Positions 25,356 to 43,788 of a DNA stretch of 64,000 nt are shown here, in pieces. Position 1 is the stretch's first letter. Every line of letters starts with the position of its first letter. A program made the translations under genes and the position numbers. This stretch comes from Octopus vulgaris (taxonomy: Eukaryota). The notes beneath the pieces are model-generated. The model worked only from the letters and a program-made list of their open reading frames with translations, made no database searches and had not been told where the DNA came from. Location of the stretch: contig OX597837.1 of the NCBI GenBank assembly GCA_951406725.2, forward strand, positions 7,068,001 to 7,132,000, read 5' to 3'.

Positions 25356-25678
25356 ATATGATATATGAGGTTAATTTAAAATAAAATAACGATTTTTATC
25401 AAGTGGTCAGTATGGAAAAAAATAACCTTCAAAGGAAATAATTATTAAAATTATAAATTAGGGTATCTACGAAATACCACCATGCTGAAAATAGCAGCCA
25501 TGATCTGACTCTAAAACCACCTTAATTGTCCATATATCAACACGAAGAGAAAACAAAGAGACAAGATGAACCTAGGAAAAAATTACTGGATAATTCTAGA
25601 TCCTGGATTTCTGGCTTTACATTTAGTAATGCTTTGCCTCGTCAGTAGAACACACGCAGAAAAGAAACATAAATACAT
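25353..25678 (-). mobile_element. (TA)n-embedded HHR-bearing element
   Basis: About 325-bp block between two (TA)n tracts that contains the hammerhead at 25594-25650; layout similar to 34264-34856. Confidence 0.6.
25594..25650 (-). ncRNA. Type-I hammerhead ribozyme, near-canonical
   Basis: TTCTA-CTGACGA-GGC aaa GCATT acta AATGT aaa GCC-a-GAAA-TCC a GGA-TC-TAGAA. All three stems pair, the site is AUC, and there is one extra A before GAAA. Confidence 0.8.
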
Positions 25679-34263: not shown

Positions 34264-34270
<7 letters not shown>

Positions 34271-34856
34271 AATAATGAGGGAGATAAATTAATATTAATT
34301 TTAATATCAATTTAAAACCAGTAGTCCAGCATACAAAAAATCTGAGAAGTCAGAGAAAATTCTAATATATGTGTATATTGGCAGGGCTTGACTGCTAGGA
34401 AGTCGGCCGTATGCTAGAAACAGATCATCAACGATCAAACTACAGAGGAAATTCTCTAGAGGAAAAATTCAGCGAACACCAGGACCAAATTTGGCGGGCA
34501 GGACAGATGAAAATTTATATAAAAAACAGAATTAAATGCATACCTCGGTTTCGGCCTTTAACAAAAGAATTACTTACATAATTCAAATGTCCGTGCTTCA
34601 TCAGTGCATTCGTTCATTGTAAATGTAAACTGAAAGCTAACCCCAGCTTTCTGTACCAGGACAGACACGTGCTTAGTCTTACCGATTACATTAGGGATAA
34701 AATTTCAAATGTCTTGGTTCTGGCGCGCTAAGAAATTCCTGAAGCGAAAGGCTGCAGTAAATAATTCACTGTGGTTAGTGCTTACTACTAGAGAACGTAT
34801 TTATTTCAATATTTAAATAATGAGGGAGATAAATTAATATTAATTTTAATATCAAT
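34264..34856 (-). mobile_element. Terminally redundant HHR-bearing element, 545-bp period, in (TA)n
   Basis: Identical 48-bp direct repeats at 34264-34311 and 34809-34856, an internal hammerhead, and (TA)n on both sides. Confidence 0.75.
34535..34610 (-). ncRNA. Type-I hammerhead ribozyme with an extended stem II region
   Basis: AATGCA-CTGATGA-agc...(about 45 nt)...gcc-GAAA-CCGAGG-TA-TGCATT: perfect 6-bp stem I and a GUA site. Confidence 0.8.
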
Positions 34857-34910: not shown

Positions 34911-35207
34911 AGATGATTTTATAGTGAATCTTTCAGTACCGGTTTCGGTCATTTTGAGACCTTTTCAACTGTAACGATTAAATAATTAAATTTAGAAAAA
35001 CGACCTCGAATACACAAGTGCAAACAAGGGAGTCAGAGAAAGGCAGAATGCCACCTATATCTGAACACTACTATGGAAGTATTCCTTTAAAAAAACCTTT
35101 CTTCTAATTTTTCTAAATTTTTCTAAATTTAATTATTTAATCGTTACAGTTGAAAAGGTCTCAAAATGACCGAAACCGGTACTGAAAGATTCACTATAAA
35201 ATCATCT
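34911..35207. repeat. Perfect 90-bp inverted repeat; each arm holds a variant hammerhead motif
   Basis: Arms 34911-35000 and 35118-35207. The motif CAG-TTGAAAA-GGTC tcaaaat GACC-GAAA-CCGG-TA-CTG lies at 35147-35184 (+) and 34934-34971 (-). Confidence 0.9.
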
Positions 35208-41780: not shown

Positions 41781-42176
41781 GACAGAAAATAGAATTCAAG
41801 AGATATTATTCTGAAGCACTACTGTCGTTTCGACCCATCATGTGCCAGTACCTAACTGGTGGGATGCTGTACAATCAGCTGTCGTGCATTATCGATGCGG
41901 CATGTCACCTGTAAGGTATGGGTACATGATGAATGGAAACGATCATGGTGGTTCTGGATAAAGAATTTCGAAAATTCCATACTTTCTATCTCTCATCGGT
42001 TCTATATAAACTCTTCGGTCACAAGGGAGTTCCTAGTGTAAATAAATCCAGTGGCACATACATCTATATTGCTGTTGACACCAGGTAGCCTAATACTGTG
42101 GACAGGCTTTAAACAACGTAATACAAGGTGTATACCTGAATGTAAAGTTATTAATATACATATATATATATATATT

Positions 42177-42345
42177 TGCGATTAATTCTTGGTTTTTTAT
42201 ATAATTTTCATCTGTCTTGCCCGCATATTGTTCTGGTGTTAGCTGAATCTTTTTCTAGGAAACATTCTTTTCGTTGTAGTTTGATCGCCGGTGATCTACT
42301 TCTAGCATATGGCTAACCACATAGTGGTTTTTTAGCACTTTAAAT
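42177..42345 (+). mobile_element. Truncated relative of the 34264-34856 element
   Basis: Aligns to the reverse complement of about 34400-34540; lies between (TA)n tracts. Confidence 0.75.
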
Positions 42346-42383
42346 ATATATATATATATATATACACGCACACACAGACATAT

Positions 42384-42465
<82 letters not shown>

Positions 42466-42607: not shown

Positions 42608-43080
42608 ATAATAGTTATCGCCATACTAATATGGCATTCTTATAAAAATAAGAATAAAGCTGACCGCTTATTAGCTCCATGAGGCCATCGCCTTAAGTTA
42701 GCTATTTGATACACAAACTGTATCCATATAACCTTCGAACAAGAGAGGTCAGTCGCTCCACATTACCAATGTCTAAGTATTGTCCAAGACTAATTAGGTA
42801 CTTTTGAAAAATATCAAGCCATACCAAAATAAGCGAACCACAAACTATGAACCCACAAACACTTTGCATATTACAAGAATGAAAGACAACACAGAATAAT
42901 GAGGTTAAGATATGAGAAACTCACAAACGAGTGTGGAGCGACTGACCTCCCTTGTTCGAAGGTTATATGGATACAGTTTGTTTATCAAATAGCTAACTTA
43001 AGGCGATGGCCTCATGGAGTTAATAAGCGGACAGCTTTATTCTTATTTTTATAAGAATGCCATATTAGTATGGCGATAAC

Positions 43081-43132
<52 letters not shown>

Positions 43133-43328
43133 ACCACTGAACCTTCAAAAACTAACAGAAAACCAATGTCTAAGTATTGTCCAAGACTAATTAGGTACTT
43201 TTGAAAAATATCAAGCCATACCAAAATAAGCGAACCACAAACTATGAACCCACAAACACTTTGCATATTACAAGAATGAAAGACAACACAGAATAATGAG
43301 GTTAAGATATGAGAAACTCACAAACGAG
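42608..43328. repeat. A-B-A(inverted)-(TA)n-B duplication
   Basis: A = 42608-42762, inverted at 42932-43086 (155 bp, about 4 differences). B = 42765-42931, repeated directly at 43162-43328 (167 bp). Confidence 0.9.
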
Positions 43329-43788
43329 AGTAATATATGTGTACTCCCACCATCAGCTATAAATTAATCATGTCAATTGACGCTTCTATGAATATAGCAT
43401 ACTTAAGCGCAGTTGAAAAGTCAGTACCTGTGATTTTCGTTCGAAGAAATCCTTTTATAGTCGTATTAACACAATAAATTTCAGAGTTAGTCGAAATAAA
43501 TCGCCACAGAAGTGTCCACGTGGGCGACAGATATGTATTTCGCCGTTTTTGCAGTTTCTCAATGTCACATACAACAAGTCGGCTCGCGGCTTTGTGAATG
43601 AATGAAATTCGGCAGATGTAATCTGCAGGAGGGATGAGCTGTCGAATTGGCTCTGTCTCTAGTTCAAGTGCCAATTCTCACGCAGTACCGGCTGTAATTG
43701 GTGTGAAATGTTTCTTATCTATTTCTTCTAGGGAATGAAACACGAGGCCATCTTATCTGTTTCTTTCCCTCGATTTGGCAACATATAT

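Follow-up and report, generated by a model that had tools for sequence, protein, structure and literature searches.

Genomic 5′ ends of a retrozyme family with Penelope-type insertion marks are enriched just 3′ of the predicted hammerhead cut

Results

Two sister retrozyme copies lie in the window

The window is a stretch of 64,000 nucleotides (G000:C24:7068001-7132000) from a (TA)n-rich animal genome of 2.8 Gb. Throughout, positions in the repeat unit are numbered from the predicted ribozyme cut, with +1 as the first base 3′ of it. Copy A (34268-34855, minus strand) is an insertion of 588 nt, made of a 545-nt unit plus 43 nt repeated; it is flanked by (TA)n, crosses the cut site and ends at S2, the second of two fixed 3′ ends. 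It contains a type I hammerhead motif (34529-34615, minus strand) composed of stem I with an extension, a CUGAUGA core from 34604, a long stem II with a GUAA loop, GAAA, a 2-bp stem III and GUA. Cleavage is predicted after GUA, between 34541 and 34540, with the 3′ product starting from 34540. The first-pass annotation had placed a hammerhead with a predicted 3′ product at 34535-34610; the motif is indeed present, on the minus strand, and both sequences quoted there occur in the window.

Copy B (42177-42345, plus strand) is a 5′-truncated copy without an inverted arm, extending from unit position +1 to about +168, the first fixed 3′ end (S1). Its first bases, TGCG, follow an (AT)8 target tract (42160-42175) and an extra T at 42176, which together form the 5′ junction (42160-42176), and at the 3′ junction, with the copy ending at about 42345, stands a (TA)n tract (42344-42462). 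The claim that the copy starts within about 2 nt of (TA)n is borne out. No element remnant was found upstream of (AT)8, so overwriting of upstream sequence by TA expansion, an alternative raised in the same annotation, is not indicated here; a later deletion may be another cause of the copy's start.

The two copies share 78% identity over 137 nt (E 2e-23 within the window) and represent sister subfamilies, A and B, whose units of 545 and 552 nt, respectively, are alignable along their entire length; a third subfamily, A2, is also present. A search with copy B alone retrieved the separate subfamily B, the longer members of which have their own GUC hammerhead (GAUCGUA-CUGACGA-GCC..GGC-GAAA-CCUAGG/CCGCCGG-UC^UGCGAUU), predicted to cut after GUC at the position homologous to the subfamily A cut. 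Position 42177 is exactly +1 relative to this GUC. The proposal that the related copy begins at the predicted site therefore holds to the nucleotide, but for the cut after its own GUC and not for the GUA of its sister subfamily. Copy B was assigned to the CCUAGG/GUC variant with a posterior of 0.70, and its boundary is uncertain by 1-2 nt if it derives from the GUU variant.

The elements CUGANGA, GAAA and UH occur in the order of a type I hammerhead, and the core columns are almost invariant in about 98 A-family reads. Across six distinct sequences, which are related and from which the structure itself was drawn, the core was constant, 97.6% of cells were paired and four pairs had changed on both sides; the covariation score exceeded that of 500/500 shuffles, and the pair count was matched by 104/500. 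The predicted fold is thus maintained by compensatory changes, a point that we count in favour of cleavage. The closing pair of stem II is G-C in B, A-C in most A sequences (74 vs 23) and A-U in A2. An Rfam scan at E up to 10 did not call the copy A hammerhead and otherwise returned microsatellite miRNA matches, and thermodynamic folding alone lent no support to the motif (z -0.1 to -1.5).

Other features of the window were recorded alongside. A motif scan identified a third hammerhead-like motif on the minus strand at 25599-25645 (CUGACGA..GAAA..UC, with a 6-bp stem I), whose fold is no better than that of shuffles. A head-to-head pair of a different hammerhead family occupies 34911-35207, with arms at 34918-34982 (minus) and 35136-35200 (plus); its core is UUGAAAA, in which U3-A8 replaces C3-G8, it carries the palindromic GAAACCGGUA, and it scores 22.9 bits against Rfam HH9, under the gathering score of 52. 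The U3-A8 hammerhead variant is known from Schistosoma Cercyon elements (PMC4209133). By eye, an inverted-repeat structure of about 450 nt occupies 42634-43085, with a (TA)n tract after it and, at about 43165-43330, a partial copy in direct orientation; the structure is possibly another Penelope-type insertion.

A non-coding retrozyme family with Penelope-type insertion marks

The first genome searches returned 1518 and 1130 candidates for the two subfamilies. Family copies are inserted in (TA)n; their 5′ ends vary, and their 3′ ends are fixed at two positions, near +175 (S1) and +288 (S2). Head-to-head pairs had one arm at S1 and the other at S2 in 35/45 cases for B and 22/32 for A. The family thereby displays the features looked for in an element mobilised by Penelope, namely 5′ truncation, an inverted 5′ arm, two fixed 3′ ends with a tail, and (TA)n targets. 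As in a retrozyme, tandem units of 551-554 nt each carry a type I hammerhead. Consistent with a non-coding element, no open reading frame of at least 120 aa lies over copy A or copy B. Among the loci examined there were no spliced copies without the GTAAGT..AG stretch. By its sequence features we class the family as a non-LTR retrozyme bearing Penelope-type insertion marks.

The longest arrangement described here is a subfamily B array of 11 kb (L297 and L298, G000:C2, ~212.108-212.119 Mb) with 17 full units between (TA)n tracts, an inverted arm ending at +282 and a sense end at +180. A multi-unit block within it was recently duplicated, and some units differ by 1-2 changes; haplotype switches at the cut proved unusable in this array, the units being too diverged and later duplicated. 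Contigs from four runs presumed, but not on record, to be RNA showed no ends; one of these contigs, 573 nt long, spans one unit, fits a circle and a tandem array equally and does not enter the argument.

Metazoan non-LTR retrozymes, as described in the available portions of Cervera and de la Pena 2020 (PMC7229834) and Li, Clavereau and Pollet 2026 (bioRxiv 10.64898/2026.07.22.740005), likewise consist of tandem units that are non-coding and carry a single type I hammerhead each, with a short palindromic stem III; they occur in forms from monomers to long arrays and are there proposed to be non-autonomous derivatives of Penelope-like elements. The typical monomer in those accounts is ~300 nt, whereas the unit here is 545-552 nt and has a long stem II extension. 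The same portions of the two papers do not map genomic 5′ ends against the cut. Canonical EN+ Penelope-like elements (Craig et al. 2021, PMC8557442, in its available portions; Frangieh et al. 2024, PMC11167929) share with the present family 5′ truncation, an inverted 5′ arm, a hammerhead within the repeat, insertion targets that are AT-rich or (TA)n, and two internal reverse transcription starts that leave a tail on one side; unlike them, the retrozyme lacks an ORF, and its tail is ~110 nt as against 30-40 nt.

Genomic 5′ ends concentrate just 3′ of the predicted cut

We sampled copies by exact 22-23-base patterns located 3′ of the cut and extended the alignments upstream, so that the 5′ ends were unselected; exact patterns favour less diverged copies. 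With the index copy B removed, the main sample comprised 118 B and 97 A ends reaching +30 (215 in total). For B, 100 of 123 matches to the +115 pattern were listed, seven later matches obtained only by BLAST ranking being dropped, and all 89/89 matches to the +31 pattern were used, with eight array matches treated separately; for A, 100 of 234 matches were listed and 17 BLAST-ranked loci dropped. Two further samples were read by eye: a fresh A sample (134 matches on C9-C30, 46 rows), in which ends with G at -3 are undetectable so that its counts are low, and an A2 census of 62/62 matches.

The 5′ ends were not uniformly distributed. Against a background end hazard of 0.4% per base, the interval +1 to +11 held 15 ends vs 4.7 expected in B and 11 vs 3.6 in A (pooled 26 vs 8.3, p 6.5e-7), and it was the top 11-nt window in each subfamily. 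Among 1000 constant-hazard simulations, none matched the pooled strength of this hotspot in any 11-nt window. With AT content, TA steps and distance adjusted for, its rate ratio was 2.6 (1.6-4.2), and the best 11-nt window started at +1. The hotspot was replicated in the fresh A sample (18 vs 5.8 expected), where 14 ends fell at +6 to +11, none at +2 to +5, four were compatible with +1, one lay at -2 and 15 at +12 to +29, and again in the A2 census (8 ends at +5 to +10 vs 2.2 expected, with 0/62 at -4 to +4).

The mode lies at +5 to +11, 4-10 nt 3′ of the cut and at the 3′ edge of stem I, and not at +1. Ends exactly at +1 numbered 3/215 vs 0.71 expected (p 0.036), and the excess at 0 to +1 was non-significant once adjusted (ratio 2.1, 0.8-5.5); in the fresh A sample, 3/4 ends near +1 were ambiguous (-1 to +2) through TA microhomology. 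We also considered a sharp spike at +1, and by eye it was not separable from the plateau, with two ends at +1 and two at 0 in 64 B rows, and two among the 100 A matches listed of 201. The histogram of 5′ boundaries that the first-pass annotation had proposed as a check hence yields an uneven distribution with +1 to +11 at its top in both subfamilies and in two fresh samples, but only a weak peak at the cut itself.

Most copies pass the site. Among the 199 copies that reach +11, 160 (~80%) read through, 26 have their end at +1 to +11 and 13 at -11 to 0; the excess over background is ~18/199, or ~10%. With this read-through and so few ends exactly at +1, long copies do not behave as in R2, where they begin at the cleavage site. 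Upstream of the cut the subfamilies differed: B had 10/108 ends at -11 to 0, which cleaved RNA cannot produce, and a fitted plateau of -9 to +19, whereas A had 0 ends between -3 and -18 among 97. In B, +1 falls outside the set for the upstream edge (-14 to -4), an effect of the nine ends that the CCGCCGG variant has 5′ of the cut. Three other AT-rich stretches reached 2.1-2.4-fold (p 0.01-0.06).

Ribozyme variants, paired arms and unusual copies

Ends fell in the hotspot in 8/26 cases for the CCUAGG/GUC variant vs 7/82 for the others (p 0.008, a post hoc comparison). The planned variant test returned 15 matches and about five new arms, too few for power; one insertion in it ends at +1/+3 and was already in the sample. 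A copies whose stem II closes with an A-C mismatch show the excess as well (9/78 vs 2/13).

Paired arms bear on whether both cDNAs of one insertion stop at the site. Inverted pairs with arms ending ≤30 nt apart made up 8 of 90 records, and 8/8 of them lay at the cut site. Both arms fell within -5 to +29 in 4/26 pairs vs 1.4 expected (p 0.047), small numbers in which the 26 inverted pairs include four reciprocal pairs counted twice. We count both results for cleavage. Further paired-arm cases were seen by eye, four in the fresh A sample and three in the A2 census.

Individual copies showed additional breaks near the site. An A2 insertion, L339 (G000:C7:92408644-92409259), has a start compatible with +1 of one unit and then crosses the next cut site, as would be seen if one cut had been used and the next had not. 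L337 (+1 to +9), L128 (-15 to 0) and L345 (+1 to +7) each carry an internal deletion that has one of its breakpoints at the scissile bond, and these deletions are possible products of re-ligation or template jumping; as evidence for cleavage these three were set aside, two of them having been chosen by eye.

Discussion

Copy B is the product predicted for run-off of reverse transcription on cleaved RNA, running from +1 to the first start site. A lone copy whose start coincides with the cut says little, because the majority of copies cross the site, and, with 4/97 pattern-anchored B ends at -1 to +3, copy B is not decisive as a single event and is not assignable to cleaved RNA with certainty. 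Taking the family map into account, we put at about even the chance that its start records run-off at the 5′ end of a self-cleaved RNA, by a route accounting for about 1 in 10 insertions. The annotation's claim that cleaved RNA served as the template thus survives in a reduced form: the hotspot at +1 to +11 is replicated, but most copies read through, the mode sits 4-10 nt 3′ of the cut, and stalling or AT microhomology gives a similar shape. Cleaved RNA is a minority template at most.

In the mechanism we envisage, a Penelope-type reverse transcriptase/endonuclease acting in trans would nick (TA)n, and cDNA would be started at one or both of the internal sites S1 and S2. Circular or uncleaved multimeric RNA would make up most templates, so that cDNAs would generally run across the cut site; a cDNA made on a linear cleaved molecule would stop at +1. 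Its GC-containing end would usually be trimmed by 4-10 nt to the AT-rich UUAAUU stretch, the trimming seeking microhomology with the target or with the other arm. A comparable process is proposed, in the available portions of PMC3774820, for R2 elements in which the cut falls at the element's own 5′ terminus.

Stalling or drop-off of the reverse transcriptase at a folded hammerhead, on RNA that is uncleaved or circular, is a rather unlikely alternative. It would place ends on the 3′ arm of stem I (+1 to +12) and, by the same effect, at stem III (-4 to -11). It accommodates the mode at +5 to +11 in all four samples (41 ends vs ~10 expected), the B ends at -11 to 0, nine of them in a variant with a GC-rich 3-bp stem III, and the lack of dependence on the stem II closing pair. 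However, the longer stem II hairpin shows no excess: its long arm just upstream of the cut has the lowest hazard (one end at -12 to -20, 0.07%/nt), and the GCAG hairpin has no consistent excess of ends, both of which count against generic stalling. In addition, the best window starts at +1, and both arms of one insertion ending at the site, in the small numbers available, are not expected from independent stalls. Sequence alone cannot decide between cleavage and stalling.

Local sequence could also produce the pattern by itself, if the AT-rich, palindrome-rich stretch at +5 to +30 aids joining to (TA)n by microhomology as well as pairing between the two cDNAs, with its nearness to the cut coincidental. 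Other AT-rich stretches are indeed raised, as noted above, AT-rich starts have about twice the hazard, and perfect fold-backs are centred on AATT at +8. Yet the excess remains after adjustment, the more AT-rich +12 to +29 is not raised once adjusted (ratio 0.73), B ends at +1 occur without TA microhomology, and identical 4-mers elsewhere are not hot (AATT, TTAA, TAAT and ATTA at 0.2-0.3%/nt vs 1.7-2.0% at the hotspot, which we count for cleavage); we consider this explanation improbable. If templates were normally self-cleaved RNA and the element's 5′ end were set by the cut, copy B and at least 10 others beginning at 0/+1 would be accounted for, but this view is refuted by the 160/199 copies reaching +11 that pass -11, and multi-unit insertions and the 17-unit array exist besides, which leaves it scarcely any probability.

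Returning to run-off on cleaved RNA, a broader and more tentative reading, which we hold to be possible but doubtful, is that the 5′-end map is a genomic readout of in vivo hammerhead cleavage in a Penelope-mobilised retrozyme. Linear cleaved RNA would then be the source of about 10% of insertions, with circles or multimers supplying the remainder; one cleaved molecule could template both cDNAs of an insertion, and the share from cleaved RNA would depend on the ribozyme variant (~30% in the palindromic CCUAGG/GUC).

In Penelope-like elements, the role of the hammerhead is described as unclear in the available portions of PMC8557442. The Anolis Penelope element could do without cleavage in vitro, and its RNA-seq data contained no reads terminating at the cut (PMC11167929), whereas the genomic ends of the retrozyme are enriched just behind the cut, the opposite tendency. 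The closest precedent is R2, for which, in the available portions of Eickbush et al. 2013 (PMC3774820), the cleavage site of the HDV-like ribozyme is reflected in genomic 5′ junctions, which vary through microhomology when the cut is the element's end. The retrozyme would resemble R2 in having 5′ junctions that mirror a ribozyme cut and vary through microhomology; it differs in ribozyme and enzyme class, and in R2 an experimentally assayed cut marks where full-length copies begin, whereas here the cut is predicted and mostly read through. Among the listings and passages that our literature search covered, there was no published map of retrozyme or Penelope-like element genomic 5′ ends against the hammerhead cut. 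The kind of element and a ribozyme-defined 5′ junction, in R2, were already known, and what is new, a replicated hotspot, is a modest addition. The replicated 5′-end excess makes the form of the template, linear or circular RNA, measurable in genome copying, and the 5′-end analysis is applicable to any genome having such families.
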